A stretch of DNA of 64,000 nucleotides from Escherichia coli (GCF_044324875.1 NZ_CP172185.1), one strand, 5' to 3'. Shown: positions 1 through 43,879, counted from the first letter of the stretch. The notes: generated from the letters alone by a model not told the origin. Numbers and translations are program-made.

Positions 1-1725
<1,725 letters not shown>

Positions 1726-1793
1726 GTCTGAATCCGGCCGACCCAAAATTTTCCCCCAAGCTTCTCCCGGTATCTTTTAAGAGTATTGATTAC

Positions 1794-3370: not shown

Positions 3371-3736
3371 ATGATTGATGTCTTAGGGCCGGAGAAACGC
3401 AGACGGCGTACCACACAGGAAAAGATCGCAATTGTTCAGCAGAGCTTTGAACCGGGGATGACGGTCTCCCTCGTTGCCCGGCAACATGGTGTAGCAGCCA
3501 GCCAGTTATTTCTCTGGCGTAAGCAATACCAGGAAGGAAGTCTTACTGCTGTCGCCGCCGGAGAACAGGTTGTTCCTGCCTCTGAACTTGCTGCCGCCAT
3601 GAAGCAGATTAAAGAACTCCAGCGCCTGCTCGGCAAGAAAACGATGGAAAATGAACTCCTCAAAGAAGCCGTTGAATATGGACGGGCAAAAAAGTGGATA
3701 GCGCACGCGCCCTTATTGCCCGGGGATGGGGAGTAA
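3371..3736 (+). CDS. insC: IS2 transposase OrfA (InsC)
   Basis: 121-aa product [41 protein letters not shown]... matches IS2 InsC. Confidence 0.9.
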
Positions 3737-26311: not shown

Positions 26312-27496
26312 TTAACTTTCCCGGCTGGAGAGTGAATCAATGTAATCAGCGTACCATTGCATCATTTCACGGCGGCCATCGAGATACAGGGCATGATTAT
26401 AGGTACCCCTGATGGAATTTTTATCCACATGAGCTAACTGCATTTCAATCCAGGCGGAATTAAAGCCTTGTTCATGCAGAATTGTACTCATGGTGTGTCT
26501 GAAACCGTGCCCTGTGAGTCTTCCCTTATATCCAAGTAATTCAATTACTTGGTTAATGCTTTCCTTACTAATTGGTTTGCGGGGATCATTTCTACCGATA
26601 AAGACTAGGGGATGATGTTTTGAGATTGGTTCAAGCTGCTTAAATAGCATAATGACCTGCTCAGAGAGCGGCACAATATGAGGTCGCTTCATCTTCATTA
26701 CTTCTGCCGGGATCTCCCACAATTTTGTCTCAAAATCGATATCTTCCCAGCGTGCAAAACGCAGTTCTTGTGTTCGTACGCCGGTTAACATAATGATCTG
26801 AGTAGCTGTCTTAGTGATTATACTTCCGGTATAACCCGCCAGATCGTTGAGGAAGTGGGGAAGTTCATTAGCAGTAAGAAAGGGAAAATGTACTTTTTTC
26901 GGTGTAGCTAAAGCACTGGCAAGATCGGGGGCTGGGTTATAGTCTGCCCGGCCAGTAACAATTGCATAGCGGAACACCTCACCACAGCGCTGGCGGACCT
27001 TGCGCATTTTCTCCAGAGCTCCACGTTTTTCCATTTTACGCAGTGCTTCCAGTAACTCCATTGGTTTGATTTCGGCAATAGGGCGCTTGCCAATGTAGGG
27101 AAAAATGTCTTTTTCAAAGGTATCAATGATTTCATCACGATAGCGTAATGACCACCGATCGGCTTTTGACTGGTGCCATTCGCGAGCAATAGCCTCGAAC
27201 GTATTTTGCAGACTCATTTGCTGCGCGATTTTTTCTTCCTTTTTTGCCTCCCCTGGATCGCCTCCAGCAGCGAGGAGTTTCCTGGCTTCACTGCGTTTCT
27301 CGCGAGCATCGGCTAGCGTTACATCGGGGTATACGCCAATAGAAAGCATCTTTTCTTTACCAGCAAAGCGGTACTTCATGCGCCAGTATTTAGAACCATT
27401 AGTGTTAATCAGTAGATACATACCGCCGCCATCAGCAAGCTTATAGGGTTTGTCTTTGGGTTTTGCGGTTTTCACTTTGATATCGGTTAATGCCAT
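26312..27496 (-). CDS. int: P4-type tyrosine integrase (island integrase)
   Basis: 394 aa; N-terminal MALTDIKVKTAKPKDKPYKLADGGGMYLLI... typical of P4-family integrases; C-terminal catalytic region with H-x-x-R and Tyr; about 300 bp from the tRNA-Sec 3' end. Confidence 0.9.
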   Translation of the reverse strand: MALTDIKVKTAKPKDKPYKLADGGGMYLLINTNGSKYWRMKYRFAGKEKMLSIGVYPDVTLADAREKRSEARKLLAAGGDPGEAKKEEKIAQQMSLQNTFEAIAREWHQSKADRWSLRYRDEIIDTFEKDIFPYIGKRPIAEIKPMELLEALRKMEKRGALEKMRKVRQRCGEVFRYAIVTGRADYNPAPDLASALATPKKVHFPFLTANELPHFLNDLAGYTGSIITKTATQIIMLTGVRTQELRFARWEDIDFETKLWEIPAEVMKMKRPHIVPLSEQVIMLFKQLEPISKHHPLVFIGRNDPRKPISKESINQVIELLGYKGRLTGHGFRHTMSTILHEQGFNSAWIEMQLAHVDKNSIRGTYNHALYLDGRREMMQWYADYIDSLSSRES

Positions 27497-27795
27497 GACA
27501 TCCTCCGGCTTTTGATGAATTCATGTTCCTGAGGGGGATTTCTGCCAGTAACTAACCTGATACCCCCAATACACCCCTTGTATAACAAAGATGTTGTTAA
27601 AAGCCGTTGTTATATATCATATTTTTCCTATTATGGGGGTGCTGGTATTTCAATAGGAAATAACACCCCCTAAAGTACCCCCAAAAGAAACTTGATACGG
27701 GGTGAAGTAGGTTGACCTCTGGATACAAATAAATACTGATATACAAGGGATTAGAAGAGATTTATTGACATTGGGAGAGTTCAGAAGAGGTAAAC

Positions 27796-27890
27796 TGGCG
27801 GAAGATCACAGGAGTCGAACCTGCCCGGGACCGCTGGCGGCCCCAACTGGATTTGAAGTCCAGCCGCCTCACCGGAGACGACGATCTTCC
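27796..27890 (-). tRNA. selC: tRNA-Sec (selenocysteine), anticodon UCA
   Basis: Minus-strand sequence GGAAGATCGTCGTCTCCGGTGAGGCGGCTGGACTTCAAATCCAGTTGGGGCCGCCAGCGGTCCCGGGCAGGTTCGACTCCTGTGATCTTCCGCCA matches E. coli selC; long variable arm. Confidence 0.95.
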
Positions 27891-28182
27891 GCGCCTCGAT
27901 TGCTACATGGAGGCGGGGCGCATTATAGCTACTTCCTTGAGTTTCTACATCCCCCAGATCAGTTTTTTCCGCCTAATACACGCAGCGTATTATCACGGAA
28001 GCATTATAATTCATATAAAACCCATATTTTACAATGATATATGAGCGGAATTAACGCTACCACGATCACATAAAACAAGAATCATAAATTAATAACCAGA
28101 TATCGGAATATTCGCTCTCACAGGGATGGTTTACAAAATGCGTTATCGGTCTCAGCACCCCTATAGCATCAAGGAAAAGCAG

Positions 28183-29565
28183 ATGAAGAGTGAAGTGTTG
28201 TCCGTTAAAGAGAAAATTGGTTATGGCATGGGAGACGCCGCCAGCCACATTATTTTCGATAACGTAATGTTATATATGATGTTCTTTTATACCGATATTT
28301 TTGGCATTCCTGCCGGATTTGTCGGAACTATGTTTTTGGTCGCTCGTGCACTGGATGCGATTTCCGATCCTTGCATGGGGTTGTTGGCCGATCGAGCGCG
28401 CTCTCGCTGGGGTAAATTTCGTCCGTGGGTACTGTTTGGCGCACTGCCATTTGGGATCGTCTGTGTACTGGCCTATAGCACGCCAGATCTCAGTATGAAC
28501 GGAAAAATGATTTATGCAGCAATTACTTACACCCTACTTACCTTACTTTATACCATCGTTAATATCCCTTACTGCGCATTGGGTGGTGTAATCACCAATG
28601 ACCCGACTCAGCGTATCTCGCTGCAATCCTGGCGTTTTGTGCTGGCGACCGCGGGAGGCATGCTCTCTACTGTGCTGATGATGCCGCTGGTTAATTTAAT
28701 TGGTGGTGATAATAAACCACTCGGTTTCCAGGGCGGTATCGCGGTCCTTTCCGTGGTGGCATTCATGATGCTGGCATTTTGTTTCTTTACCACTAAAGAA
28801 CGCGTTGAAGCACCACCTACAACGACGTCTATGCGGGAAGATTTACGTGATATCTGGCAAAACGATCAGTGGCGGATTGTCGGTTTACTGACCATTTTCA
28901 ATATTCTGGCGGTGTGCGTACGCGGCGGGGCGATGATGTATTACGTCACATGGATTTTGGGTACGCCGGAAGTGTTTGTCGCTTTTCTTACCACTTATTG
29001 CGTGGGTAACCTGATTGGTTCCGCACTGGCGAAACCGCTGACCGACTGGAAATGTAAAGTCACTATCTTCTGGTGGACGAACGCCCTGCTGGCAGTGATT
29101 AGCCTCGCGATGTTCTTTGTTCCTATGCAGGCCAGCATCACTATGTTTGTCTTCATCTTCGTGATTGGTGTGTTGCATCAACTGGTGACACCTATCCAGT
29201 GGGTAATGATGTCCGATACCGTCGACTACGGCGAGTGGTGCAATGGTAAACGCCTGACCGGGATCAGTTTTGCTGGCACGCTGTTTGTGCTCAAGCTGGG
29301 GTTGGCCTTCGGCGGCGCTCTTATCGGCTGGATGCTGGCTTATGGCGGATATGATGCGGCAGAAAAAGCGCAGAACAGCGCCACGATTAGCATCATTATC
29401 GCGCTATTCACGATTGTTCCGGCGATCTGTTATTTGCTGAGCGCGATTATCGCTAAACGCTACTACTCACTCACGACGCACAATCTGAAAACCGTTATGG
29501 AACAGCTGGCTCAGGGCAAACGCCGTTGCCAGCAACAATTCACCTCTCAAAATGTGCAGAACTAA
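28183..29565 (+). CDS. yicJ: GPH-family (glycoside-pentoside-hexuronide) cation symporter YicJ
   Basis: 460 aa from MKSEVLSVKEKIGYGMGDAASH...; matches E. coli YicJ from memory. Confidence 0.9.
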   Translation: MKSEVLSVKEKIGYGMGDAASHIIFDNVMLYMMFFYTDIFGIPAGFVGTMFLVARALDAISDPCMGLLADRARSRWGKFRPWVLFGALPFGIVCVLAYSTPDLSMNGKMIYAAITYTLLTLLYTIVNIPYCALGGVITNDPTQRISLQSWRFVLATAGGMLSTVLMMPLVNLIGGDNKPLGFQGGIAVLSVVAFMMLAFCFFTTKERVEAPPTTTSMREDLRDIWQNDQWRIVGLLTIFNILAVCVRGGAMMYYVTWILGTPEVFVAFLTTYCVGNLIGSALAKPLTDWKCKVTIFWWTNALLAVISLAMFFVPMQASITMFVFIFVIGVLHQLVTPIQWVMMSDTVDYGEWCNGKRLTGISFAGTLFVLKLGLAFGGALIGWMLAYGGYDAAEKAQNSATISIIIALFTIVPAICYLLSAIIAKRYYSLTTHNLKTVMEQLAQGKRRCQQQFTSQNVQN

Positions 29566-29574
29566 GGAACGGCA

Positions 29575-31893
29575 ATGAAAATTAGCGACGGAAACTGGTT
29601 GATTCAACCTGGCCTCAATTTGATTCACCCGCTTCAGGTGTTCGAGGTTGAACAGCAGGGTAATGAAATGGTGGTCTATGCTGCCCCTCGTGATGTGCGT
29701 GAACGTACCTGGCAGCTTGATACGCCTTTATTTACGCTGCGCTTTTTCTCCCCACAGGAAGGTATTGTCGGTGTACGGATTGAGCATTTTCAGGGGGCGC
29801 TGAATAACGGTCCTCATTACCCGCTCAATATTTTGCAGGACGTGAAGGTCACAATCGAAAACACAGAACGTTACGCTGAGTTTAAAAGTGGCAACTTAAG
29901 TGCGCGTGTCAGCAAAGGTGAGTTCTGGTCACTGGATTTTCTGCGTAACGGCGAACGTATTACCGGTAGTCAGGTGAAAAATAATGGCTACGTGCAGGAC
30001 ACGAATAATCAACGAAATTATATGTTTGAGCGGCTGGATCTTGGCGTTGGCGAAACAGTTTACGGTCTGGGAGAGCGCTTTACTGCGCTGGTGCGCAATG
30101 GCCAGACGGTAGAGACCTGGAACCGGGACGGCGGCACAAGTACTGAACAGGCGTATAAAAATATCCCGTTCTATATGACTAACCGTGGCTATGGGGTACT
30201 GGTCAATCATCCTCAATGCGTCTCTTTTGAAGTGGGATCGGAGAAAGTCTCCAAAGTGCAGTTCAGCGTTGAGAGTGAATATCTCGAATACTTTGTTATC
30301 GACGGCCCGACGCCGAAAGCGGTACTTGATCGTTATACCCGTTTTACTGGTCGTCCGGCGCTGCCGCCCGCGTGGTCCTTCGGCCTGTGGCTAACCACTT
30401 CATTTACCACCAACTACGACGAAGCGACGGTAAACAGTTTTATCGATGGTATGGCGGAACGCAATCTGCCACTGCATGTTTTCCACTTTGACTGTTTCTG
30501 GATGAAAGCCTTCCAGTGGTGCGATTTTGAGTGGGACCCGCTGACTTTCCCGGACCCGGAAGGGATGATCCGCCGCCTGAAAGCGAAAGGGCTAAAAATC
30601 TGCGTCTGGATTAACCCCTATATCGGGCAAAAATCCCCTGTCTTTAAAGAGTTACAAGAGAAAGGCTATTTACTCAAACGCCCGGACGGTTCGTTATGGC
30701 AGTGGGATAAATGGCAGCCAGGTCTGGCGATTTATGACTTTACCAATCCGGATGCCTGCAAATGGTACGCCGACAAACTGAAAGGTCTGGTCGCGATGGG
30801 CGTTGATTGCTTTAAGACCGACTTTGGCGAACGTATTCCAACCGATGTTCAGTGGTTTGACGGTTCCGATCCGCAGAAAATGCATAACCATTATGCGTAC
30901 ATCTACAACGAACTGGTGTGGAAAGTGCTCAAGGAAACCGTTGGCGAGGAAGAAGCCGTCTTGTTTGCTCGCTCGGCCTCCGTTGGTGCGCAGAAATTCC
31001 CGGTACACTGGGGTGGTGACTGTTACGCTAACTACGAATCAATGGCGGAAAGCCTGCGCGGTGGTTTGTCTATTGGCCTTTCAGGTTTTGGTTTCTGGAG
31101 CCACGATATCGGCGGCTTTGAGAATACCGCGCCGGCGCACGTTTACAAACGCTGGTGCGCGTTTGGTTTGCTCTCCAGCCATAGCCGTTTACACGGCAGC
31201 AAATCTTATCGTGTGCCGTGGGCCTACGATGATGAGTCCTGTGATGTGGTGCGCTTCTTCACGCAACTGAAATGCCGCATGATGCCGTATCTGTATCGTG
31301 AAGCTGCTCGTGCGAACGCGCGGGGTACGCCGATGATGCGGGCCATGATGATGGAGTTTCCGGACGATCCGGCTTGTGATTACCTTGACCGTCAATACAT
31401 GTTAGGCGACAACGTGATGGTTGCGCCTGTGTTCACTGAATCGGGCGATGTGCAGTTCTACTTGCCTGAAGGTCGCTGGACACACCTGTGGCACAACGAT
31501 GAACTCGATGGTAGTCGCTGGCATAAACAGCAGCACAGCTTCCTGAGTCTGCCCGTTTATGTGCGTGATAACACCCTACTGGCGCTGGGCAACAACGAGC
31601 AACGTCCCGATTACGCGTGGCACGAAGGCACGGCATTCCAGCTCTTTAATCTACAAGACGGGCATGAAGCCATCTGTGAAGTGCCCGCTGCTGACGGTTC
31701 CGTTCTTTTCACCCTGAAAGCGGCGCGTACTGGCAACACGATTACTGTGACTGGTGCGGGCGAGGCGAAGAACTGGACACTGTGCTTGCGCAATATTGTG
31801 AAAGTAAATGGTCTGCAAGGTGGTTCGCAGGCTGAAAGTGAGCAGGGACTGGTGGTGACTCCTCAAGGGAATGCGCTGACAATTACGTTGTAA
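29575..31893 (+). CDS. yicI: Alpha-xylosidase YicI (GH31)
   Basis: 772 aa; GH31 motifs ([14 protein letters not shown]); matches E. coli YicI. Confidence 0.9.
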
Positions 31894-32187
31894 TCTATTG
31901 AAGAATGCCGGATACGAATGGTTTTGTGTCGTATCCGGTAAATAATCTCACATCTGGTAATAAATATTTCTTCCATCGTATTTGCGAGCATGATCACGAT
32001 TATTCATCACGAAAATGTGATCTGTGCCGAAAAATATCTATTAACCGCCCCGTTTTGTTTTATACATGTCCGGACTACGGACAGATTTTAGTATTGTTGT
32101 GAAATTATTCTGCTTTATATTTACCCTCAGAGATGGCAACTGAAGCTCTTCCACATGGGGCTTCTTAATCTGTGATAAGGGTAAAAA

Positions 32188-33741
32188 ATGCAAATGATTA
32201 CCTCGCGACAAAACAGATTATTACGATTCCTTTTACCACGAAGGGAATATACGACTATTGTTACGATTGCCGGCTATTTAAATGTTTCGGAAAAAACCAT
32301 TCAACGTGATTTACGTTTACTTGAGCAATGGCTGGAACAATGGCGAATAACCGTTGAGAAGCGTGCTGGCGCAGGTGTGATGTTAGACTCGAAGAATATT
32401 ACTGATTTGCTGCATCTTGATCATTTGTTGGGAGCAGAATGTGAAGAGATTGATGGTGTAATGAATAATGCCAGGCGCGTTAAAATAGCGTCGCAGTTAT
32501 TAATTGAAACACCGAATGAAACGTCGATCAGTAAATTGTCAGAGCGCTATTTTATCAGTGGAGCCTCTATTGTTAATGACCTGAGAGTGATTGAGTCCTG
32601 GCTTGCGCCGTTGGGGTTATCATTGATCCGCAGCCCAAGTGGTACGCATATTGAAGGTAGTGAAGGGCAAGTCCGACAGGCAATGGCATTACTGATTAAC
32701 GGCATTATTAACCATAATGAGCCGCAAGGTGTCGTGTATTCACGTCTGGATCCCGGAAGTTATAAAGCATTAGTCCATTATTTTGGAGAAGAAGAGGTGT
32801 TATTTGTCCAGTCATTGTTACTGGATATGGAAAATGAATTAAGTTGGTCTTTGGGAGAGCCTTATTACGTTAACATTTTTACTCACATCCTTATTATGAT
32901 GTATCGCAACACGCACGGGAATGCGTTATCCAGAGAAGAAGATCAAACCAGGCAATATGATGAAAATATCTTTAATGTTGCCAGTCAGATGATTCATAAG
33001 ATAGAACAACGAATTGCACATACATTGCCCGATGATGAAGTCTGGTTTATTTATCAATATATCATTTCATCAGGTGTGGCGATTGATGGACAAAAAGATG
33101 TTAGCATTATTTCACATATGCAGGCCAGCAATGAAGCGCGTCTGATTACCTGGCGTTTAATTACGGTATTCAGTGACATCGTGGACTGCGATTTTAGTGA
33201 AGACAGCGCATTATATGATGGCTTGTTGGTTCATATTAAGCCGCTGATTAACCGACTAAATTATCGCATTCATATCCGTAATCCATTGCTGGAAGATATT
33301 AAAGCAGAATTAGCGGATGTCTGGCGGTTGACGCAATATGTGGTGAATCAGGTATTTAAAACCTGGGGTGAGAATGCAGTGAGCGAGGATGAAGTAGGTT
33401 ACCTGACCGTTCATTTTCAGGCTGCGATGGAGCGGCAAATTGCCCGTAAACGTGTATTACTGGTCTGTTCAACCGGAATCGGAACTTCGCATCTACTGAA
33501 AAGCCGTATTCTGCGAGCATTTCCTGAATGGACGATTGTTGATGTTATTTCAGCAGCGAATTTATCACAGGTTTTGCCTGACAATATCGAACTGATTATT
33601 TCGACCATTAATTTGCCTACAGTCACTATGCCGGTCGCTTATGTTACCGCTTTTTTTAATGATGCCGATATTAAGCGAGTCACTGAAATGGTGATTACGG
33701 GAAAATTACATCATGCGACATCTCGGGTCGTTGAAATTTAA
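32188..33741 (+). CDS. PRD-domain transcriptional activator with HTH and PTS EIIB/EIIA-like regulatory domains (MtlR/LicR type); first gene of the frz-like operon
   Basis: 517 aa; N-terminal HTH (TIAGYLNVSEKTIQRDLRLLEQ), central PRD-like region, C-terminal EII-like domains. Confidence 0.7.
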   Translation: MQMITSRQNRLLRFLLPRREYTTIVTIAGYLNVSEKTIQRDLRLLEQWLEQWRITVEKRAGAGVMLDSKNITDLLHLDHLLGAECEEIDGVMNNARRVKIASQLLIETPNETSISKLSERYFISGASIVNDLRVIESWLAPLGLSLIRSPSGTHIEGSEGQVRQAMALLINGIINHNEPQGVVYSRLDPGSYKALVHYFGEEEVLFVQSLLLDMENELSWSLGEPYYVNIFTHILIMMYRNTHGNALSREEDQTRQYDENIFNVASQMIHKIEQRIAHTLPDDEVWFIYQYIISSGVAIDGQKDVSIISHMQASNEARLITWRLITVFSDIVDCDFSEDSALYDGLLVHIKPLINRLNYRIHIRNPLLEDIKAELADVWRLTQYVVNQVFKTWGENAVSEDEVGYLTVHFQAAMERQIARKRVLLVCSTGIGTSHLLKSRILRAFPEWTIVDVISAANLSQVLPDNIELIISTINLPTVTMPVAYVTAFFNDADIKRVTEMVITGKLHHATSRVVEI

Positions 33742-33767
33742 TGTCAGAATTTTATGAGGTATGACGA

Positions 33768-34238
33768 ATGGACATAACAAAAATCCTGAATACGAATCGC
33801 GTTATTTTAGATATGCAAGCGACGAATAAAGCGGAGGCGATTGAAGAATTAACTAATCTTCTCAAAAAAGATGGTGCGATCGATTGTCGGGAAACCTTTA
33901 TTAAAGATGTCTGGCAGCGCGAAGCGGAAGGCTCGACTGGTTTTGAAAATCATATTGCGATCCCGCATGGTAAATCTTCTGCGGTAATTAATACCACGCT
34001 GGCTATCGGGCGTACCCGGCAGGATATTCCCTGGGAAACACTGGATGGCAGTAGCGTACGCTGTATTATTTTATTTGCGGTACGTCTTGAAGATCAAAAT
34101 ACCACTCATATCCGTTTACTTTCCCAGGTCGCGGGCGCGCTTGCAGATGATGACATCATAGCGCAATTGCTGGTTGAGACGAGCCCGCAAAAAATCATTG
34201 ATCTCTTTAGTCAGTATGCACAATCCGATGTCTACTAA
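33768..34238 (+). CDS. PTS EIIA component, fructose/mannitol family
   Basis: 156 aa with the conserved IAIPHGK histidine-phosphorylation motif. Confidence 0.8.
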   Translation: MDITKILNTNRVILDMQATNKAEAIEELTNLLKKDGAIDCRETFIKDVWQREAEGSTGFENHIAIPHGKSSAVINTTLAIGRTRQDIPWETLDGSSVRCIILFAVRLEDQNTTHIRLLSQVAGALADDDIIAQLLVETSPQKIIDLFSQYAQSDVY

Positions 34239-34255
34239 ATAACAGGGAGTATATC

Positions 34256-34570
34256 ATGAATATTGTCTGTGTTGCCGCCTGCACGGCGGGTATTGCTCAC
34301 ACCTATATTGCTCGTGAAAAGTTAATTAAAGGGGCAAAAGCACTGGGCCACACCATTAAAGTTGAAACCCAGGGAACCATTGGTACAGAAAACGAATTAC
34401 AGGCGGCAGAGATCTCTGCTGCTGACGTCGTGATTCTTGCTGTGGATGTGAAAATAAAAGGAGAAGAACGTTTTACCAATAAACGCATTGTGCGAGTAAA
34501 GACAGAGATCGTCATTAAATCGCCCGTTCAATTTCTTGAAAAGGTCGAAAAATCACTGGGAAATAAATGA
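34256..34570 (+). CDS. PTS EIIB component, fructose-type
   Basis: 104 aa; N-terminal Cys-containing motif VCVAACTAGIAHTY. Confidence 0.75.
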   Translation: MNIVCVAACTAGIAHTYIAREKLIKGAKALGHTIKVETQGTIGTENELQAAEISAADVVILAVDVKIKGEERFTNKRIVRVKTEIVIKSPVQFLEKVEKSLGNK

Positions 34571-34594
34571 TCCTTATACTGGAGGGATCTTAAT

Positions 34595-35686
34595 ATGAAA
34601 GAAAATGAAATTCCGGTTTCACAGGAAATTAAAAAACATTTATTAACCGGCATCTCGTGGATGATACCCCTTATTGTGGCCGCCGGGATATGTATTGCGT
34701 TGGGGCAAGTTCTTGGCGGTACAGATGTTGGTGAAAAAACAGGAACAATCCCGTGGATGCTTAATCAGATTGGCGGCTGGGGAATGGGGCTGATTGTGCC
34801 GCTGATTAGCGCGGCAATTGCCTATTCTATTGCCGATCGTCCCGGATTTGCCCCGGGCCTGATTGTCGGCTTTCTCTGTGGGCAAATCCATACCGGATTT
34901 ATTGGCGGTATGTTGGGTGGTTTCCTGGTGGGCTACACCATTTTGCTACTTAAACGCTATATTCGCCTGCCGCAGTCGATGCAAGGACTCATGCCAATCA
35001 TGGTGTTGCCGGTATTAAGCACCATTATCGGTGGGCTGTTAATGATGACGCTGATTGGTAAACCCATCGCCTGGTTACAAGAAGCACTGATTCATTTGCT
35101 CGAGTCGATGCAGGGCGGATCGCGCTTCCTGATGGGGGCCATACTTGGCGCGATGGCAACCTTCGATTTCGGTGGTCCGGTCAACAAAACCATGTCGCTG
35201 TTTTCCGATGGCTTGCTGGTCAGTGGCGTCTACGGACCAGAAGCCGTGAAATTTGTCGGCTCAATCATCCCTCCGTTTGGCATCACACTTTCGTTCTTAC
35301 TGACACGCCATAAATACACCCGTGCGGAGCGCGAGGCGCTGAAAGCCGCGTTTCCGATGGGGATCTGCATGATCACTGAAGGAGTCATTCCGATCGCCGC
35401 GCGTGACCTGTTGCGAGTAGTGGGATCTTGTGTGGTGGCATCGGCGGTCGCGGGCGGCTTAATCATGGTGTGGGGCGTGGAGAGTCCGGTTCCACATGGC
35501 GGCATGTTTGTTGTGCCTCTGTTCACCCATCCTCTGCTGTTTTGCCTGGCGCTGGGTATAGGCACGGTGATTTGTGGCGTGATGCTTTCACTCTGGAAGA
35601 AACCGGTAACGGAACGCGACGAAGAGTTTGACGAACTGAGCGATCAAAAGCTGAAAGATGAAGAGATCATTTTCACCCTCGAATAA
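34595..35686 (+). CDS. PTS EIIC permease, fructose-type
   Basis: 363 aa, polytopic membrane protein directly after the IIB gene. Confidence 0.75.
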   Translation: MKENEIPVSQEIKKHLLTGISWMIPLIVAAGICIALGQVLGGTDVGEKTGTIPWMLNQIGGWGMGLIVPLISAAIAYSIADRPGFAPGLIVGFLCGQIHTGFIGGMLGGFLVGYTILLLKRYIRLPQSMQGLMPIMVLPVLSTIIGGLLMMTLIGKPIAWLQEALIHLLESMQGGSRFLMGAILGAMATFDFGGPVNKTMSLFSDGLLVSGVYGPEAVKFVGSIIPPFGITLSFLLTRHKYTRAEREALKAAFPMGICMITEGVIPIAARDLLRVVGSCVVASAVAGGLIMVWGVESPVPHGGMFVVPLFTHPLLFCLALGIGTVICGVMLSLWKKPVTERDEEFDELSDQKLKDEEIIFTLE

Positions 35687-35697
35687 CCGGAGGCCCT

Positions 35698-36549
35698 ATG
35701 TTTGCCGATATGAAAAGTATGGTGATGAAAGCCTGGCATGAACATTACGCCTTGCTGGCGATCAACTGTATGAATCTGGAAAGTGCTCGCGCAGCTATCC
35801 GCGTGGCGGAGAAGAATCGCGCTCCGATCATTCTCAATCTCTATCAGGGGCATCTGGCGCATTTTCCTGCACCCGTCGCGGCGGCAGTGGTTAAAACGCT
35901 CGCGGAATCTGCCTCAGTACCGGTCACTCTGGCGCTTGATCATGGCAAAAATCCGGACTGTATTCGTCAGGCGTTTCGTGCTGGTTTCAGCGGATTAATG
36001 ATTGATGCTTCTGCTTTTCCCTTGGAGGAAAACGTGCGCCAGACCAAGGCGGTGGTGGAACTCGCCGCCAGCGCGCAGCTCTGCGTTGAAGGCGAACTGG
36101 GCCATCTGGCAGATGCGCCGCGTTACGACCAGGCCGCCAATGCAGACATGATGACGCAACCCACTGATGTGGAAGCGTTTATCGCGCAGACAGGCATTGA
36201 TCTACTGGCCGTTTCGGTAGGCACGGCGCACGGCATGTACGCGCCTGGTGTTGTACCTGCTATTGATTTTCAGCGTCTGGCGGAGATTTTCCACTGCTCG
36301 AGCGTGCCTCTGGCATTACATGGTTGTAGCGGTACGCCGTTCGATCAGCTCCAGCTCTGTACGACTCTGGGGGTAGCAAAAATCAACGTGGGGGCGGCCA
36401 TTTTTGAACGGGGGAAATCCGCGCTCCTGCATACCCTCTGTCACGATATATCCATTGAACTGGTGGACGCGCTGAAAGCTATGGAACTGGCCTTCGAAGA
36501 AGCGATTACACCGTATTTACAGGCGAGCGGCTCTATCGGCAAAGCCTGA
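35698..36549 (+). CDS. Class II ketose-bisphosphate aldolase (tagatose/fructose-1,6-bisphosphate aldolase family, GatY/KbaY-like)
   Basis: 283 aa; conserved LALDHG and LALHGCSG metal-binding motifs. Confidence 0.8.
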   Translation: MFADMKSMVMKAWHEHYALLAINCMNLESARAAIRVAEKNRAPIILNLYQGHLAHFPAPVAAAVVKTLAESASVPVTLALDHGKNPDCIRQAFRAGFSGLMIDASAFPLEENVRQTKAVVELAASAQLCVEGELGHLADAPRYDQAANADMMTQPTDVEAFIAQTGIDLLAVSVGTAHGMYAPGVVPAIDFQRLAEIFHCSSVPLALHGCSGTPFDQLQLCTTLGVAKINVGAAIFERGKSALLHTLCHDISIELVDALKAMELAFEEAITPYLQASGSIGKA

Positions 36550-36629
36550 TTCATTTTCTGTCATGGCCTTTATGCCAGTGCAATAACGCACCGGCAGGGC
36601 GGACTACACGCTGAAACTGGAGATTTAAC

Positions 36630-37490
36630 ATGTTAGTTTCGATGAAAGAATTACTGCAACCTACCCGCCAGCACGGCTTTGCCATTGGCGCATTTAATGT
36701 GGCGGATAACTGTTTCCTTCGCGCAGTCGTGGATGAAGCAGAAGCGACAAATACTCCGGCGATTATTGCCATCCATCCCAGCGAACATGATTTTGTGGGC
36801 GATGCCTTTTTCGCTCACGTTCGCGAAATTACCCAGCGTAGTCCGGTCCCGTTTGTACTGCACCTCGATCATGGTGCCTCTGTAGAGCATGTTTTGCGTG
36901 CGATTCGCTGCGGATTTACCTCAGTAATGATCGACGGTTCGCTGCTGCCGTATGAAGAAAACGTGGCGCTGACCGCAGAAGTGGTTCGCCTCGCTCACGC
37001 GGTTGGAGTGTCGGTTGAGGGTGAACTGGGAACCATCGGACAAACAGGAACGTCGGTAGAAGGTGGTGTTTCACAAGTGACCTACACAGATCCGGCGCAG
37101 GCCGCCGATTTTATTGCTCGTACAGGTGCCGACACTCTGGCTGTGGCGATTGGTACAGCGCATGGCATCTATCCAAAAGGGATGCAGCCGAAGCTGCAAA
37201 TGGACATTTTGCGCGACATTGCCGGACGTATTGATATTCCGCTGGTGCTACACGGTGGTTCGGCAAACCCGGACGCGGAGATTGCTGAATCAGTTACGCT
37301 CGGCGTCGGCAAAATCAATATCTCCAGCGATATGAAATACGCCTATTTCCAGAAAGTGCGTGAAATTCTCGCTAAAGAGAGCTGGTGGGACCCGAACGTC
37401 ATCTATCCGGATGCGATTAACGCGGCGCGGGAAGTCATTCGCCACAAAATGAAACTGTTCGGTTCGCTCGGTAAAGCATCACTGTACTAA
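36630..37490 (+). CDS. Class II ketose-bisphosphate aldolase, second paralogue
   Basis: 286 aa; VLHLDHGAS and LVLHGGSA motifs. Confidence 0.8.
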   Translation: MLVSMKELLQPTRQHGFAIGAFNVADNCFLRAVVDEAEATNTPAIIAIHPSEHDFVGDAFFAHVREITQRSPVPFVLHLDHGASVEHVLRAIRCGFTSVMIDGSLLPYEENVALTAEVVRLAHAVGVSVEGELGTIGQTGTSVEGGVSQVTYTDPAQAADFIARTGADTLAVAIGTAHGIYPKGMQPKLQMDILRDIAGRIDIPLVLHGGSANPDAEIAESVTLGVGKINISSDMKYAYFQKVREILAKESWWDPNVIYPDAINAAREVIRHKMKLFGSLGKASLY

Positions 37491-37537
37491 GCCAGAAGGG
37501 CGGGGTGACCCGCCTTTTACGCAACAAGGAACGAGAT

Positions 37538-38470
37538 ATGCACTATCTGGGGTTGGATATTGGTGGGACCAAAATCGCCGCCGTCGTCATGGATGCGCAT
37601 GGCTGGGAGATTCGCCGTTACCGCTGCCCGACGCAAAAGTCGACATATCAACAATTTGTCTCATGCGTTGTGGCGTTTATCGAGCAGATTAGGCGGGACG
37701 TTCAACGACCGATGCTGACAGGGATCGCCTTACCCGGCAGTATCTCGCCACTCACTGGCCTGATTAAAAACGCGAATATTCAGGTGATTAACGGTCATGC
37801 GTTACAGGCTGATTTGCAGCAATTGCTTGGGCAACCGGTGGTGATAGCCAATGATGGTAACTGTTTCGCGCTATCAGAAGCTTGCGACGGTGCCGGGCAA
37901 GATTATGACGTGGTATTTGGTATTACGCTTGGTACGGGCTGCGGCGGTGGCATTGCCATCAAGCAACGACCGTTTATAGGGGCCTGGGGAAATGCTGCCG
38001 AATGCGGTCATATCACGTTGCCAGGCTATACGGAGCAGGAAGATGGTCCATCAGTCAGTTGCTATTGCGGCAAACACAACTGCGTGGAGTCGTTTGTTTC
38101 CGGCAGCGGTTTTAGTGAACGCTATCAACAGATGACTGGTAACTTGCTCACTCCTGCGGCGATTGTCACCCTGGCACAACGTGGTGATGCTTGTGCCATG
38201 CAGCAGGTGGCACGTTTTCGCCAACAGCTTGCCCGCACGCTGGCAACCATCGTTAACGTTGTTGACCCTGGCGTGATTGTGATCGGCGGCGGGCTTTCGA
38301 ATGTGGAACTGCTTATCACCGCTCTGAACGCAGAAGTTGCTCCACTGGTTTTCACCGATCAATTCACCACTCCCATTGTAAAAGCACAGCACGGCGACAG
38401 TAGCGGAATGCGTGGCGCTGCCTGGCTTGCTATGCGCAACGGAGAAGCCAATGAAACGTTCACAAATTAA
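37538..38470 (+). CDS. ROK-family sugar kinase
   Basis: Start at MHYLGLDIGGTKIA; ROK zinc-binding cysteine motif (CYCGKHNCVE). Confidence 0.8.
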   Translation: MHYLGLDIGGTKIAAVVMDAHGWEIRRYRCPTQKSTYQQFVSCVVAFIEQIRRDVQRPMLTGIALPGSISPLTGLIKNANIQVINGHALQADLQQLLGQPVVIANDGNCFALSEACDGAGQDYDVVFGITLGTGCGGGIAIKQRPFIGAWGNAAECGHITLPGYTEQEDGPSVSCYCGKHNCVESFVSGSGFSERYQQMTGNLLTPAAIVTLAQRGDACAMQQVARFRQQLARTLATIVNVVDPGVIVIGGGLSNVELLITALNAEVAPLVFTDQFTTPIVKAQHGDSSGMRGAAWLAMRNGEANETFTN

Positions 38471-39131
38471 TTATGTTATTGATAAAGCACATGCCATTGC
38501 GCAGACCTTCCGCGTTTGTTTGCCAGAGTTCGCCTATTTTACGGTGGATGACTGGCTGCAGCGGGAACGGGATAACTGGCAAGAAGTGGTCGACTTACAG
38601 CTCGGTTGGGATATCACCGATTTTGGTCGTGGTGATTTCAACCAAACGGGACTAACACTGCTAACGATGCGCAACGGCGCGCTGGGGGCGGCGGCATATC
38701 CAAAACCGTATGCTGAGAAAATGTTGCAGATCCAACAAGATCAGCAGACTCCCTGGCATTTTCACACCCACAAAATGGAAGATATCCTCAATCGGGGCGG
38801 TGGAGACTTATGCATGCAGTTGGCCTGGGCCAACGAAGCCAATCTCTGTGATGATCAGCGGGTTATTACCGTGAGTGTTGATGGTCAGCGGCGTGCCGTG
38901 AAACCTGGTGAAACGCTGGTGCTAAAGCCGGGGCAGGGCATTTGCCTGCCGCCGCGTCTGTATCATCGCTTCTGGGCGGAAAAAGCGTTTGTTCTCGGCT
39001 GGGAAATTTCGATGGTAAATGATGACCAACATGATAACCATTTTCTTGAGCCGGGAGGACGTTTTCCGGCGATAGAAGAAGATGAACCGGTGAAATGGTT
39101 ATTGTGTAGTGAGTATGCTGTTTTGCGGTAA
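38451..39131 (+). CDS. Cupin-superfamily sugar isomerase (D-lyxose isomerase-like)
   Basis: About 226 aa starting MKRSQINYV; overlaps the end of the ROK kinase gene; last gene of the operon. Confidence 0.65.
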   Translation: MKRSQINYVIDKAHAIAQTFRVCLPEFAYFTVDDWLQRERDNWQEVVDLQLGWDITDFGRGDFNQTGLTLLTMRNGALGAAAYPKPYAEKMLQIQQDQQTPWHFHTHKMEDILNRGGGDLCMQLAWANEANLCDDQRVITVSVDGQRRAVKPGETLVLKPGQGICLPPRLYHRFWAEKAFVLGWEISMVNDDQHDNHFLEPGGRFPAIEEDEPVKWLLCSEYAVLR

Positions 39132-39173
39132 TAGCGGGGACGCTAACGTTGATATCCGTTAGCGCCCGCGTAT

Positions 39174-40883
39174 TTACTGCACCGGCTCCGTCGATGTAAC
39201 TTCGCCACTGGAAACGACGCCTGCATTCATGGTTTGAGTCACTTGCTGCTTTGTGGCGTTCATGGCATGCAATTGCCCGCTAACCGTAGGTTTCAGCGGG
39301 ATATTGGCCTGAATATCGCCGCTGGCGGTAAGCTGAATATTGCCGTCGCCAGTCAACGGTAATTCAGGCCATCCCCACTGTTGCAAAATATTCACCGGCA
39401 CACCGCGTCCATTCAGGCTGATATGGGTCTGACGTTGTGGCGTTTGTGAAACACTGGCGGTGGCTTCCAGAATGCCTTTTTCAGTAAATGCACTCAGTTC
39501 GCTGATATTCACCGTGCTGCTGTTGGCGGTCAGCGCCAGCGATGGGCGACGAACATCAACACGATTGAATGTCGCGGCGGCGGCATTCAGATTCGCCGAA
39601 CCACTCCAGACGCCCCATTTATGATCGGTAACCAGCGTCAGGTTGGCACCGTAACCATCGAGCGCGGTGAGCTGCCACGGGAAGTCAGGGTCGATATCAA
39701 TGATCAGATTGCGGCTGGCGCTAAATCTCTTCAGTTGCAGGCTGTTTAACCAGCCGGGTGTCGTTTCCATCCACAACTGTTGCCAGTTTTTCGGCAAGGT
39801 ATATTCCAGCCCGGCAATTGCCGCATCATCAAGGATCAACGTTTTCCCGTCACGCAGCCAGTTCCCTGACGTTCTGACCATGCCCCCTTCCCAGCGGCTG
39901 GTGAACTGGCGCAGCGCTACGCCCTGCGGGGAAAATTCCGCGTTTATAATCGGGTCAAATAAATGCAGCGAACCATAAATGAACTCGCTGGCGTTCATCG
40001 ACAGTTTGCCTTCCTGTGTCTGCCAGTCATCTTTACTGAAGGTCATGTTGCGCAAGCTGAGATCGAGGTCGGTCACCGCCCAGTCCGGACCTTGCAGACG
40101 AGCGTCAATGACTTCCAGGCGACCAATCTGCAACGACGGGACAGAGCGTAATGGCGCAAAGAAATCGGTTAGCGATTTTTCGCTTTGTAGACGGATATCC
40201 GCCATGCGCAGGTTTTCCACTTGCCAGCTGCCGTCAGCGTTACGCTGCGCGTTTCCGGTTAATGTCCCGCGGGCGATGTCGGCACCCAGGTTAGTCAGCG
40301 TAACGCGATCGTTATCAATACTGCCTTCAATCAGTACATTGGTGGCAGGAACATCATTGAGCGAAAGCGATCCGGCACTAAACTGAATCTGCGCCTTCGT
40401 ACCCAGCACTTTACCGGCTTCTGGTGACCACGGAACCACGCCGCCATTTACCCGCTGCGCGCTCAGTTTCCATTCGCTATTCGGGCTATTAAACGCCATC
40501 TCACGCAGTTGCAGACGATCGGCTTTGAACGGTAGCGGCGCGGTCTGGTCGGTGAGATTCAGCGTCCCGTTTTCCAGCAGGATGGTATCGACATGGCGTG
40601 GTTCGGTCAGTTGCCGACTGCTTAGCGCAATGTCGACACTTTTTGCCACCAGGGTCGCGGGCTGGCCATCACGGCCAAACGTGACGTTCTCCAGCACGAT
40701 ATGAGATGGCGCGGAAAAACGGTGATCCATCGCCCCGAAGGCCAGATGATAGTCGCTATTCTCGGAAACCCATGCGCTGATATGTTCTGCTCCCCAGCGG
40801 GTTTGCAGAAGAAAATAGAGGCCAGCGATCACCACTAACAGAGCGATGAAAATGTAGAGAAGCAGCTTCCCAATAAATTTCAT
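39174..40883 (-). CDS. yicH: AsmA-family inner membrane protein YicH
   Basis: 569 aa from MKFIGKLLLYIFIALLV...; matches E. coli YicH. Confidence 0.9.
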   Translation of the reverse strand: MKFIGKLLLYIFIALLVVIAGLYFLLQTRWGAEHISAWVSENSDYHLAFGAMDHRFSAPSHIVLENVTFGRDGQPATLVAKSVDIALSSRQLTEPRHVDTILLENGTLNLTDQTAPLPFKADRLQLREMAFNSPNSEWKLSAQRVNGGVVPWSPEAGKVLGTKAQIQFSAGSLSLNDVPATNVLIEGSIDNDRVTLTNLGADIARGTLTGNAQRNADGSWQVENLRMADIRLQSEKSLTDFFAPLRSVPSLQIGRLEVIDARLQGPDWAVTDLDLSLRNMTFSKDDWQTQEGKLSMNASEFIYGSLHLFDPIINAEFSPQGVALRQFTSRWEGGMVRTSGNWLRDGKTLILDDAAIAGLEYTLPKNWQQLWMETTPGWLNSLQLKRFSASRNLIIDIDPDFPWQLTALDGYGANLTLVTDHKWGVWSGSANLNAAAATFNRVDVRRPSLALTANSSTVNISELSAFTEKGILEATASVSQTPQRQTHISLNGRGVPVNILQQWGWPELPLTGDGNIQLTASGDIQANIPLKPTVSGQLHAMNATKQQVTQTMNAGVVSSGEVTSTEPVQ

Positions 40884-41003
40884 GGTCTTCCATCCCGTGA
40901 AATGCACATAAGGGAGTTATGCACGATTTACGCGCAATCCTCAAGGCGGGAATGGTGAAAGAGGTGAGACTGCGGCGGTAATTATCTTACCGCCGCCAGT
41001 GAA

Positions 41004-42395
41004 TTACTGTTTTTCTGGTGGGAAAATCAGATTCAGCACGATGGCAGTAATACCGCCCGCGGCGATCCCGGAGGAGAGCAGGTTTTTCAGCCACTCAGGG
41101 GCAAACTGCAAAATCAGCGGCTGCTGAGAGACGCCCAGACCAACCGCCAGCGACAGCGCGATAATCAGAATCGCCCGACGGTTCAGCGGCTCACGAGACA
41201 CAATGCGCACACCGGAGGCGGCGATGGTGCCAAACATTACAAGTGTTGCGCCGCCCAGAACCGGTTCTGGAATATGTTGTACAAAACCGCTCACTGCCGG
41301 GAACAGACCCAGCACGATCAACATCAGCGCGACGACAAAACCGACATAGCGGCTGGCAACCCCGGTCAACTGGATCACTCCGTTGTTCTGCCCGAAGCAG
41401 GAGTTCGGGAAGGTGTTAAACACCGCCGAAACAAACGAGTTCAGGCCGTTTGCTAGCACGCCGCCTTTCAGGCGTTTCATGTACAGTGGACCGGACACTG
41501 GCTGTTCGGAAACGTCAGAGGTCGCCGTGATATCGCCAATGGTTTCCAGTGAAGTGATCATAAAGACCAGCATCAGCGGCAGCAGCAGACTCCATTCAAT
41601 GCCAAGACCGTAATAGAGCGGCGTTGGCACCATAATCAGTTCTTGCGTCATCGGTTCGTTGCTTTCTGGCAACATGCCCATAAACCACGCCAGCGCATAT
41701 CCGGCCGCCATCGCAATCACCAGTGAGGCCACGCGTAAGTAAGGGTTACGTTGACGGTTAAGCAGGATAATTAAGGCTAAGACCACGCCTGCCAGCAGCA
41801 GATTTTTCGGTGCGCCGAAGGTGTTATCGCTCATGGCTGCGTAACCGCCGCCAATGGATGTTAGCCCCACCTGAATTAGCGACAGGCCGATAATCATCAC
41901 CACAACGCCAGAAACCAGCGGCGTAATAATGCGGCGCGCCAGATGCAGAACGCGGGAGATCACCATCTCGGTGCAACTTGCCAGCATCAACGTGCCGAAC
42001 AAAGCCGCCATCATGGTAGGAACATCAGCACCACCGGTTTTCAGCGCGGTACCGCCCATAATCAGTGGGGCAACAAAGTTGAAGCTGGTGCCCTGAATAG
42101 ACAACAGCCCGGAGCCAACCGGACCCCAGGCCTTAATTTGAATAATCGATGCCACACCGGAGGCAAACAGCGACATACTAATAATGTGTTGCGTGTCTTG
42201 TGCCGGTAAACCCAGCGCCTGGCAGATTAATAGCGCTGGCGTGATCACCGCAACGAACATCGCCAGCAAATGCTGACAGGCGGCAAACAGAGTTTGAGGA
42301 AGCGGCGGACGATCTTCAAGACGGTAAATCAGTTCGCTGTTTTGAGTCTGCGCAACCGGTTGCGCATTTTCTGACTCGAGGGTGGAAACAGACAT
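41004..42395 (-). CDS. xanP: Xanthine:H+ symporter XanP (NCS2 family)
   Basis: 463 aa from [16 protein letters not shown]...; matches E. coli XanP (YicE). Confidence 0.95.
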
Positions 42396-42673
42396 CGAAA
42401 ACAATCCCGTGGTAGCAAAGCGGGCATTTTAGCTGACCGAAAGAGAAAAGCAAACGTTTGCTACGGCCTCTGCTAAATATTTAAATGAGATAAATGCACT
42501 TTTTTATATAACTTTTGGTATTTTTCTGCTTAAAATCCATGCCATTTGTTCATTAACAGCTGAGAATTTGACCCAGGAAAGCATAACTCGATACCCGTCA
42601 TAGTTCATAAGTTGCCACTGCGCGATGAAGTATGACGAGTATGAAAGAGTGATGCGGATACAAAGGAGTAACT

Positions 42674-43879
42674 ATGTTTCATCTCGATACTTTAGCAACG
42701 CTTGTTGCCGCAACGCTGACGTTGCTGCTCGGGCGTAAGTTGGTCCATTCCGTCTCCTTTTTGAAGAAATACACCATACCGGAACCTGTTGCGGGTGGTT
42801 TGTTGGTGGCGCTGGCGCTACTGGTACTGAAAAAAAGCATGGGCTGGGAAGTCAACTTTGATATGTCCCTGCGCGATCCGTTAATGCTGGCTTTCTTCGC
42901 CACCATTGGCCTGAACGCCAACATTGCCAGTTTGCGTGCCGGTGGGCGTGTGGTTGGCATCTTCTTGATTGTGGTTGTTGGTCTGTTGGTGATGCAAAAT
43001 GCCATTGGCATTGGTATGGCTAGCCTGTTAGGGCTTGATCCGCTGATGGGGCTGTTGGCCGGTTCTATTACGCTTTCCGGCGGTCACGGTACGGGCGCTG
43101 CGTGGAGTAAATTGTTCATTGAACGCTATGGCTTCACCAATGCGACGGAAGTGGCGATGGCCTGTGCGACGTTTGGTCTGGTGCTGGGCGGCTTGATTGG
43201 CGGTCCGGTAGCGCGCTATCTGGTGAAACACTCCACCACGCCGAACGGTATTCCGGATGACCAGGAAGTCCCGACGGCGTTCGAAAAGCCGGATGTGGGC
43301 CGCATGATCACCTCGCTGGTGCTGATTGAAACTATCGCGCTGATTGCTATCTGCCTGACGGTGGGGAAAATTGTTGCGCAACTTTTGGCTGGCACTGCTT
43401 TTGAACTGCCGACCTTCGTCTGTGTACTGTTTGTTGGCGTGATTCTGAGCAACGGTCTGTCAATGATGGGCTTTTACCGCGTCTTTGAGCGTGCGGTATC
43501 CGTGCTGGGTAACGTAAGCCTGTCGTTGTTCCTGGCGATGGCGCTGATGGGGCTGAAACTATGGGAGCTGGCTTCGCTGGCGCTGCCGATGCTGGCGATT
43601 CTGGTGGTACAGACCATCTTCATGGCGTTGTATGCCATCTTCGTTACCTGGCGCATGATGGGCAAAAACTACGATGCGGCGGTGCTGGCTGCGGGTCATT
43701 GTGGTTTTGGCCTCGGTGCAACGCCAACGGCAATCGCCAACATGCAGGCGATCACTGAACGTTTTGGCCCGTCGCACATGGCGTTCCTGGTAGTGCCGAT
43801 GGTCGGTGCGTTCTTTATTGATATCGTTAACGCGCTGGTGATTAAGCTGTATTTAATGTTGCCGATTTTTGCCGGTTAA
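42674..43879 (+). CDS. gltS: Sodium/glutamate symporter GltS
   Basis: 401 aa, matches E. coli GltS. Confidence 0.95.
   Translation: MFHLDTLATLVAATLTLLLGRKLVHSVSFLKKYTIPEPVAGGLLVALALLVLKKSMGWEVNFDMSLRDPLMLAFFATIGLNANIASLRAGGRVVGIFLIVVVGLLVMQNAIGIGMASLLGLDPLMGLLAGSITLSGGHGTGAAWSKLFIERYGFTNATEVAMACATFGLVLGGLIGGPVARYLVKHSTTPNGIPDDQEVPTAFEKPDVGRMITSLVLIETIALIAICLTVGKIVAQLLAGTAFELPTFVCVLFVGVILSNGLSMMGFYRVFERAVSVLGNVSLSLFLAMALMGLKLWELASLALPMLAILVVQTIFMALYAIFVTWRMMGKNYDAAVLAAGHCGFGLGATPTAIANMQAITERFGPSHMAFLVVPMVGAFFIDIVNALVIKLYLMLPIFAG

Follow-up and report, generated by a model that had tools for sequence, protein, structure and literature searches.

We analysed a stretch of 64,000 nucleotides from Escherichia coli (GCF_044324875.1, NZ_CP172185.1), called the window below, in which the open reading frame (ORF) listing places eight plus-strand genes between yicI and yicH, at positions 32188-39131 (Table 1). 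They encode a PRD-containing regulator (FrzR), the EIIA, EIIB and EIIC subunits of a fructose-family phosphotransferase system (PTS), two class II aldolases, a ROK-family sugar kinase and a cupin isomerase, and together they make up frz, an operon already known from extraintestinal pathogenic E. coli (ExPEC). The chromosome of strain BEN2908 (NZ_LR740776.1) served as the reference for this identification and likewise has these eight genes, flanked by yicH and yicI. Window positions 31000-40000 aligned with it as one collinear block at 97.8% identity over 9001 bp, and all eight proteins were equal in length to their BEN2908 counterparts, with zero to nine amino acid differences each. On the basis of this collinearity, the level of identity and the equal protein lengths, we conclude that the locus is frz, with the same genes, order and slot; compared with the BEN2908 allele, that of the window shows about 2% difference within the operon and about 4% across the flanks.

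The operon was reportedly defined by Rouquet et al. in 2009 (J Bacteriol 191:4427) in BEN2908, an avian ExPEC strain. PMC12928451 presents frz as a carbohydrate operon of BEN2908 that lies between yicH and yicI and is missing from K-12, and lists it as genomic region GR27 'yicH..yicI'. That paper and PMC8777976 tie frz to stress fitness, adhesion, invasion and the switching ON of type 1 fimbriae, the fitness phenotype being placed in late stationary phase under oxygen restriction, in lysogeny broth (LB) without a defined sugar. Transcription of frz as a single unit is likewise reported in the literature (PMC8777976). The EIIC gene, frz orf4, serves as a diagnostic marker for avian pathogenic E. 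coli, or APEC (PMC8896058). A 2021 review places frz among the genes whose function is unknown or not clearly known and also assigns it a role in fructose transport (PMC8069529), and no resolved substrate was found in the searchable literature. An earlier note, made from the sequence alone, had given the same gene content, which the ORFs and family models bear out, and had proposed the match to frz, its link to stress fitness and its unsettled sugar, on all of which the alignment and the cited sources agree with it.

Genes and signals of the operon

The fructose-family enzyme II is complete, with all three subunits above curated cut-offs, and the translations carry the phosphorylation-site motif HIAIPHG in EIIA and the N-terminal cysteine motif AACTAGIAHT in EIIB. 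EIIC was nearest to FruA (297 bits). Aldolase 2 scored 525.9 bits against NF006042 (cut-off 405) and 259.5 bits against TIGR00167 (cut-off 215.6), contains the motifs LDHG, GTAHG and LHGGS, and has aldolases of fructose 1,6-bisphosphate (FBP) and tagatose 1,6-bisphosphate (TBP) as its relatives in the PDB. The best PDB match of aldolase 1 was AgaY, with whose zinc ligands D82/H83, H180 and H208 its own residues align; overall, aldolase 1 is equally distant from AgaY, 7NCC (a putative class II FBP aldolase) and YdjI. The FBP aldolase equivalog cut-offs of NCBIfam were reached by neither protein.

The kinase, whose translation includes a CxCGxxxC zinc motif, scored 316.7 bits against NF007108 (Mak), under the cut-off of 443, and is predicted to be a relative of Mak, not Mak proper. 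The cupin matched the D-lyxose isomerase structures 3KMH and 3MPB from E. coli O157:H7 (E = 6e-65), and its metal motifs HxH...E and H align with theirs; it reached 270.8 bits against the NF051472 equivalog (cut-off 350), and PF07385 was recorded for its homologues. Judged by these matches, it clearly belongs to the D-lyxose/D-mannose isomerase family. The ORF calls for these last two genes were 37505-38470 and 38412-39131. The RefSeq annotation of a 99.7% identical genome uses the later starts adopted in Table 1, with which the two genes overlap by 20 bp.

The regulator has the Pfam domain order HTH_11, Mga, PRD, PRD and PTS_IIB (EIIB(Gat)-like), and the protein stops at residue 517 after the EIIB-like domain, with no match to PTS_EIIA_2. 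On the strength of these domains FrzR is predicted to be a DNA-binding PRD activator of the MtlR/LicR/ManR kind. The RefSeq product name, a BglG-type RNA antiterminator, was rejected on the grounds that the N-terminus is of the helix-turn-helix (HTH)/Mga type and not a CAT RNA-binding domain.

The 250 bp before frzR were compared across 11 upstream regions from about 10 genera (alignment A3). Two nearly invariant blocks lie farthest upstream: a predicted CRP-like box, for comparison with the CRP consensus TGTGA-N6-TCACA, and a second block that contains TGTGA at 32016-32020. They are followed by a palindrome, TGTCC-N7-GGACA, whose arms are kept as sequence across all 11 regions while its spacer varies. 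A generic scan had labelled this palindrome, the sole leader hairpin, a terminator; because its RNA fold is weak (z = -1.3) and no covariation was found, it looks like a DNA operator, putatively that of FrzR, rather than an RNA terminator. A ribonucleic antiterminator (RAT) target at the same position was rejected for its weak fold, its conservation as sequence and the HTH domains of the regulator. Farther down, TTATATTTA and TATTGT are invariant or nearly so in A3 and fit a weak -35 and a good -10 element; in the window the putative promoter consists of a weak -35, TTGTTG (32094-32099), a 16-nt spacer and the -10 element TATATT (32116-32121). The frzR start codon and its Shine-Dalgarno sequence are conserved across genera. 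These features point to a frz promoter that is putatively activator-dependent and catabolite-controlled. In Citrobacter youngae (contig L014, about 6680-6810), an insertion of about 130 nt, absent from the other ten regions, separates the promoter elements from the frzR start codon and may be a REP-like element.

Three further hairpins were found on the plus strand (Table 1). The one between the aldolase 2 and kinase genes has a GGCGGG/CCCGCC stem that is conserved in genomes with and without the kinase gene; it appears to mark the boundary of the invariant core described below and may be a partial terminator or processing site. The one at the end of the operon overlaps the stop codons of both the isomerase gene and yicH and folds stably on the plus strand (-31.9 kcal/mol, z = -5.3) and the minus strand (-26.2 kcal/mol, z = -3.4), in line with the earlier proposal that the operon ends in a hairpin shared with the convergent yicH. 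In BEN2908 an A-to-G change in one arm is paired with a T-to-C change in the other, and a T5 run follows the hairpin; because of this compensatory change and the T run, the comparison supports a real terminator common to the convergent genes. The window version differs from BEN2908 by these compensatory changes and a shorter T run.

Upstream of the operon lie tRNA-Sec (27796-27890, minus strand) and then yicJ and yicI on the plus strand; downstream, yicH and xanP are both on the minus strand, convergent to the operon. An Rfam scan of 27000-43000 gave tRNA-Sec as the only match.

Table 1. Features of the frz locus, in window coordinates. A3 is the alignment of the 11 regions upstream of frzR; a period marks a feature that folds on both strands.
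Feature	Position	Strand	Length (aa)	Evidence or remark
Hairpin directly 3' of the yicI stop codon	31906..31940	+		-18.3 kcal/mol, z = -3.5
Predicted CRP-like box, TGCGA-N6-TCACG	31983..31998	+		Nearly invariant in A3
Second conserved block, AAAATGTGATCTG, possible CRP-like half-site	32016..32031	+		Nearly invariant columns in A3
Palindrome TGTCC-N7-GGACA, proposed FrzR site	32067..32083	+		Conservation in A3
Putative activator-dependent promoter	32094..32121	+		Conservation in A3
frzR, PRD-containing transcriptional activator	32188..33741	+	517	Pfam, NCBIfam
frzA, EIIA, fructose family	33768..34238	+	156	TIGR00848, 126.9 bits (cut-off 103.5)
frzB, EIIB, fructose family	34256..34570	+	104	TIGR00829, 99.4 bits (cut-off 76.85)
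frz orf4, EIIC, fructose family	34595..35686	+	363	TIGR01427, 311.7 bits (cut-off 157.55)
Aldolase 1, divergent class II (PF01116)	35698..36549	+	283	Zinc-ligand alignment, YdjI-like loop
Aldolase 2, class II ketose-bisphosphate aldolase	36630..37490	+	286	NF006042, TIGR00167
GC-rich hairpin then UUUU, between aldolase 2 and ROK genes	37495..37518	+		-20.5 kcal/mol, z = -4.2
ROK-family sugar kinase	37538..38470	+	310	Nearest Mak manno(fructo)kinase; optional in relatives
Cupin isomerase, D-lyxose/D-mannose family	38451..39131	+	226	PDB match; optional in relatives
Bidirectional hairpin between isomerase and yicH stop codons	39125..39180	.		Folding on both strands

Distribution, gene content and ancestry

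In a K-12-type genome the yicI stop codon is followed by 52 bp and then the yicH stop codon, and the two genes are adjacent in K-12-like and O157:H7 genomes alike. Relative to this junction the window holds about 7.23 kb of extra DNA, reaching roughly 39170, and its left edge is the hairpin at 31906-31940, which, by the junction alignment, is the homologue of the one hairpin that K-12 has between yicI and yicH. Of 5426 complete E. coli genomes, 1602 held 80% or more of window 31500-39700; the others, K-12 O16:H48 and O157:H7 EDL933 among them, matched the flanks only. A sensitive blastn search of the same genomes with the aldolase-kinase-isomerase part gave 1605 carriers (about 30%), in none of which identity was below 95%, and turned up no divergent paralogue of that part. 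The earlier note had given the K-12 adjacency correctly, and its view of the operon as accessory, for which it had named K-12 beforehand as the refuting case, holds with K-12 lacking frz.

A scan of one genome per bacterial species located the operon in 27 Enterobacteriaceae representatives. The arrangement yicJ-yicI-[frz]-yicH-xanP recurred in Escherichia sp. MOD1-EC7003, about 12 Citrobacter species, Klebsiella grimontii, K. michiganensis, two Superficieibacter species and Phytobacter ursingii. The frz proteins were 71-96% identical to those of Citrobacter, Klebsiella and Salmonella, a range that includes the values for the flanking genes (yicI, 87-89%; yicH, 80-82%; xanP, 95-96%). No mobility ORF was listed within 31894-39173, and a repeat search found no direct repeats or att-like sites at the operon boundaries; the sole tRNA gene nearby, selC, lies 4 kb upstream with yicJI in between. 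The marks by which an integrative island is recognized (an integrase or transposase, a tRNA target, flanking repeats and deviant composition) are thus not seen at this locus, apart from a partial dip in GC. The frzR, EIIA and EIIB genes (32188-34570) have 41-44% GC, with 38-42% at third codon positions, as against 50-55% GC for the other five genes, and this dip recurs in the Citrobacter, Klebsiella and Vibrio copies, not in that of Pantoea; because it is common to those three genera, we read it as a property of the operon and not as a sign of recent import. Since the same slot is occupied in several other genera, and since mobility genes and flanking repeats are lacking, frz looks as if it had long occupied the yicI-yicH slot in Enterobacteriaceae and had then disappeared from the E. 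coli lineages to which K-12 and O157:H7 belong.

The regulator, EIIA, EIIB, EIIC and both aldolases were present in every locus examined, while the ROK kinase, the isomerase, a phosphomannose isomerase (PMI) and a PfkB kinase were variable; the comparison thus defines a predicted functional unit of regulator, PTS and two aldolases. Many Citrobacter loci lacked the ROK gene, as did those of Superficieibacter, Izhakiella, Buttiauxella warmboldiae and one Klebsiella. Pantoea has the six-gene core with no extra genes, and Gibbsiella and Vibrio have the core plus ROK. Anaerostipes caccae has the core with ROK and a PfkB kinase, and transaldolase and transketolase genes adjoin. Sebaldella adds a short gene of the lyxose-isomerase family, and a 34% GC metagenome contig (L045) adds a short isomerase, a ROK kinase and a type I mannose-6-phosphate isomerase. 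The EIIC, EIIB and aldolase 2 proteins of this contig are 70-77% identical to those of E. coli (EIIC, 76%), and its isomerase and ROK kinase only 28-29%, a disparity that argues for independent recruitment of the isomerase and kinase types in L045 and E. coli. Directly upstream of the frz-like operon, positions 1-4470 of the same contig encode another PRD regulator, one that carries an EIIA domain, along with a lone PF01116 aldolase that is 53% identical to aldolase 2 and a fructose-family EIIABC in fused form; modules that join a PTS to aldolase thus exist in at least two forms.

The 3' ends of yicI and yicH (31000-31893 and 39174-40000) are unusually diverged for E. coli, at about 96% identity to BEN2908 and about 95.5% to K-12, and parts of the operon are 99.5-99.8% identical to BEN2908 despite these diverged gene ends; recombination around the yicI/yicH junction seems likely from this pattern. 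Window 1-25000 matches BEN2908 at 99.8% over its full length, as against 97.8% for the adjacent frz region, so that the window is mosaic relative to that strain. This segment encodes GH32 and GH31 glycoside hydrolases, major facilitator superfamily (MFS) transporters, OmpG-type porins and IS66, and is presumably the selC-associated carbohydrate island AGI-3/fos, a study object of the same laboratory. The closest frz allele was that of E. coli ETEC1738 (NZ_CP122768.1, 105735-133232), which is collinear with the window only downstream of about 24460 and has a different selC island, with a class 1 integron (dfrA1, aadA1, qacEdelta1, sul1), a mer operon, catA1, IS26, the tia invasin gene and a phosphoethanolamine transferase gene.

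Working model and competing explanations

In the model that we favor, FrzR would turn on the weak promoter from the conserved palindrome, with input through the CRP-like sites and from the PTS, which would phosphorylate its PRD and EIIB-like domains. The fructose-family EIIA, EIIB and EIIC would import and phosphorylate, probably at C1, a ketose with fructose-like (3S) stereochemistry, and the aldolase pair would split the sugar phosphate into dihydroxyacetone phosphate (DHAP) and a second fragment, as it stands or once a housekeeping or accessory kinase has added another phosphate. An optional side branch, made up of the Mak-like ROK kinase and the isomerase of lyxose/mannose type, would channel a free manno- or lyxo-configured aldose, or its free ketose counterpart, into this pathway or central ones. 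Lyxose/mannose isomerases require 2,3-cis aldoses, which yield 3S ketoses, and the ketose phosphates split by known PF01116 aldolases are of 3S,4R or 3S,4S configuration. From this shared stereochemistry, candidate sugars would include fructose/mannose, tagatose/talose, L-sorbose/L-gulose, xylulose/lyxose and the heptuloses sedoheptulose and mannoheptulose. The earlier note had derived a rare ketose from the presence of two aldolases, a kinase and an isomerase; the gene set stands, and the part of the argument that leaned on the kinase and isomerase is weakened because both genes are optional in relatives. For the identity with frz, this working model and the old-resident ancestry taken jointly, we estimate a probability of about 80%.

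A number of observations weigh against that combined reading. The putative frzR promoter was missed by a generic promoter scan. The operon has also been mobile: one Salmonella carries frz beside tRNA-Sec, within a selC island that also holds remnants of an integrase and a transposase (contig L009 of SRR22857687, 2988-11124, flanked by a transposase fragment on one side and an integrase fragment on the other). Relative to its E. coli position, frz is there on the other side of yicJI, and yicI and yicH are adjacent. Kosakonia, Buttiauxella and Izhakiella have frz with other flanks, and the identity of the window to BEN2908 (96-99.8% in the operon interior, about 96% in the flanks) fits recombination as well as vertical descent. 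Aldolase 1 lies under every NCBIfam cut-off (TIGR00167, 195.9 bits against 215.6), and its loop reads GHLADAPRYD, not G(R)LGGxED, so that the GG-x-E motif is replaced; with such scores and a loop unlike that of FBP and TBP aldolases, bisphosphate cleavage by this enzyme is not assured. A functional link between frz and yicJI, considered from the Salmonella placement, was rejected, the selC integration hotspot beside yicJ being the better explanation.

The selC placement and the distribution within E. coli would also suit a horizontal island specific to ExPEC or the B2 group, with K-12 as the ancestral empty site: only some 30% of complete genomes carry frz, its first three genes are poorer in GC than the rest and the flanks, and a Listeria study proposed inter-phylum transfer of the homologous operon (PMC2996996). 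We consider this unlikely, given that the insertion point is identical in at least five genera, that no direct repeats, integrase or insertion sequence elements flank E. coli frz, that protein identity to Citrobacter and Klebsiella tracks that of the flanking core genes and that the GC dip is common to Citrobacter, Klebsiella and Vibrio. The operon might otherwise be mainly a sensory or regulatory PTS, in which phosphorylation of FrzR and EIIA/EIIB alters other genes, for example the fim switch, and sugar catabolism is secondary or vestigial. The published phenotypes (stationary-phase fitness and the fimbriae switch) would fit, having been recorded without a defined sugar (PMC8777976, PMC12928451), as would the lack of a reported substrate in the searchable literature (PMC8069529). 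Against it, from Firmicutes to Enterobacteriaceae the six core genes retain 50-85% identity, the two aldolases among them with the residues aligned to zinc ligands intact, which indicates selection on catalysis, and the upstream CRP-like boxes are typical of catabolic operons; we therefore hold it to be very improbable.

Two other accounts grant catabolism and differ in the sugar. A second fructose/mannose system, in which fructose would be taken up as fructose 1-phosphate, the two aldolases would be additional FBP aldolases, and mannose would be isomerized to fructose and then phosphorylated by the ROK kinase, would suit the proximity of EIIC to FruA and of the kinase to Mak, the action of the isomerase family on D-mannose and the role in fructose transport given by the 2021 review. 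E. coli already has FruBKA, ManXYZ, ManA and FbaA. The failure of both aldolases to reach the FBP equivalog cut-offs also tells against plain fructose, for which two dedicated, always-paired aldolases are hard to explain, and the review that gives frz a fructose-transport role also lists it among unknown-function genes (PMC8069529); this account, too, is very doubtful. The alternative is that the PTS product is a C7-C9 ketose 1-phosphate cut directly by aldolase 1 to DHAP and a free manno- or lyxo-configured aldose, which the cupin would then isomerize and the ROK kinase phosphorylate. In place of GG-x-E, aldolase 1 and its orthologues have an ELGH...Y[DE] loop that resembles that of YdjI, and YdjI favors long-chain ketose 1-phosphates (PMC9602453, PMC11194214). 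The invariant core has no dedicated 1-phosphate kinase, all accessory genes are for free mannose-type sugars (the Mak-like ROK kinase, the isomerase and the mannose-6-phosphate isomerase of L045), and the transaldolase and transketolase genes adjoining the Anaerostipes copy would be in keeping. The loop likeness, however, is one short motif in a protein no closer to YdjI than to AgaY or 7NCC, the Anaerostipes PfkB kinase fits the classical bisphosphate route, and we know of no natural source of C8 or C9 ketoses in these niches. We regard the C7-C9 route as improbable, and give equally small odds to its wider form, in which the six-gene core, with its YdjI-like and its canonical class II aldolase, would serve across phyla to break down a 3S-ketose that is higher in carbon or unusual in some other way. 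This ketose would be cleaved as the 1-phosphate, and the free manno- or lyxo-configured aldose would pass to independently recruited isomerase, ROK kinase or PMI add-ons.

The PTS-aldolase model with old residence bears on an operon that is an APEC/ExPEC marker, tied to serum and gut fitness and to type 1 fimbriae expression. The locus itself was already known; what is added here is the ancestral slot, the six-gene cross-phylum core and the conserved upstream motifs. The comparative picture narrows the tests to regulator, PTS and aldolase pair as the putative functional unit, with kinase and isomerase optional; the stereochemical requirement of the isomerase matches the 3S ketoses cleaved by PF01116 aldolases, and the conserved palindrome offers a ready reporter for inducer screens. 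On this view frz would be less a "virulence island" than an enterobacterial operon of long standing that commensal-type E. coli lineages lost, which affects how its virulence association is read.

Comparison with known systems

More distant relatives share the six-gene core in the same order: lmo2133-lmo2138 of Listeria monocytogenes, for which the Listeria study names frz as a homologue (PMC2996996), and the operons of Pantoea, Vibrio, Anaerostipes caccae and Sebaldella. They differ from frz in lacking the ROK kinase, the isomerase or both, or in having PfkB or PMI add-ons. In the Firmicutes and Fusobacteria among them the regulator runs to about 650 aa, and that of Anaerostipes (L048, 657 aa) has an extra EIIA-type domain. 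The D-tagatose cluster of E. coli B2 strains (PMC9720028) was rejected as a match, being a separate locus with an ATP-binding cassette (ABC) transporter.

The Salmonella enterica contig L010 (GCA_014568715.1, 7598-14438) has an MFS transporter, a lyxose-isomerase-family gene, a PF01116 aldolase, a PfkB kinase, a zinc alcohol dehydrogenase and a DeoR regulator, with type IV pilus and plasmid-like genes adjoining; its isomerase is 62% identical to that of frz, and the cluster as a whole resembles the ydj cluster of E. coli K-12. The ydj cluster, with the YdjI aldolase and YdjH kinase, is like frz in its PF01116 aldolase with an ELGH-type loop; both clusters, however, have MFS transporters and PfkB kinases where frz has a PTS, and the L010 aldolase has the canonical GG loop, unlike aldolase 1.

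In regulation and uptake, frz resembles the mannose operon of Bacillus subtilis (ManR, ManP, ManA) and the MtlR/LicR systems, with an activator of HTH, Mga, PRD, PRD and EIIB(Gat) domains and a fructose-family PTS operon under its control. FrzR lacks the C-terminal EIIA(Mtl)-like domain of MtlR, LicR and ManR, and the frz aldolases stand in place of the phosphomannose isomerase. The gat and aga/kba systems of E. coli (GatYZ, KbaYZ) likewise couple PTS uptake to a class II ketose-bisphosphate aldolase; GatZ and KbaZ, however, are non-catalytic and of another family, whereas both frz aldolases are PF01116 proteins with catalytic residues, and the PTS family differs. The cupin, finally, is of the same family as the D-lyxose isomerase Z5688 of E. 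coli O157:H7 (3KMH/3MPB), with about half of the aligned residues identical by inspection, and a 49% identical Z5688-type relative (P0085, 247 aa) adjoins an ABC sugar transporter, not a PTS.

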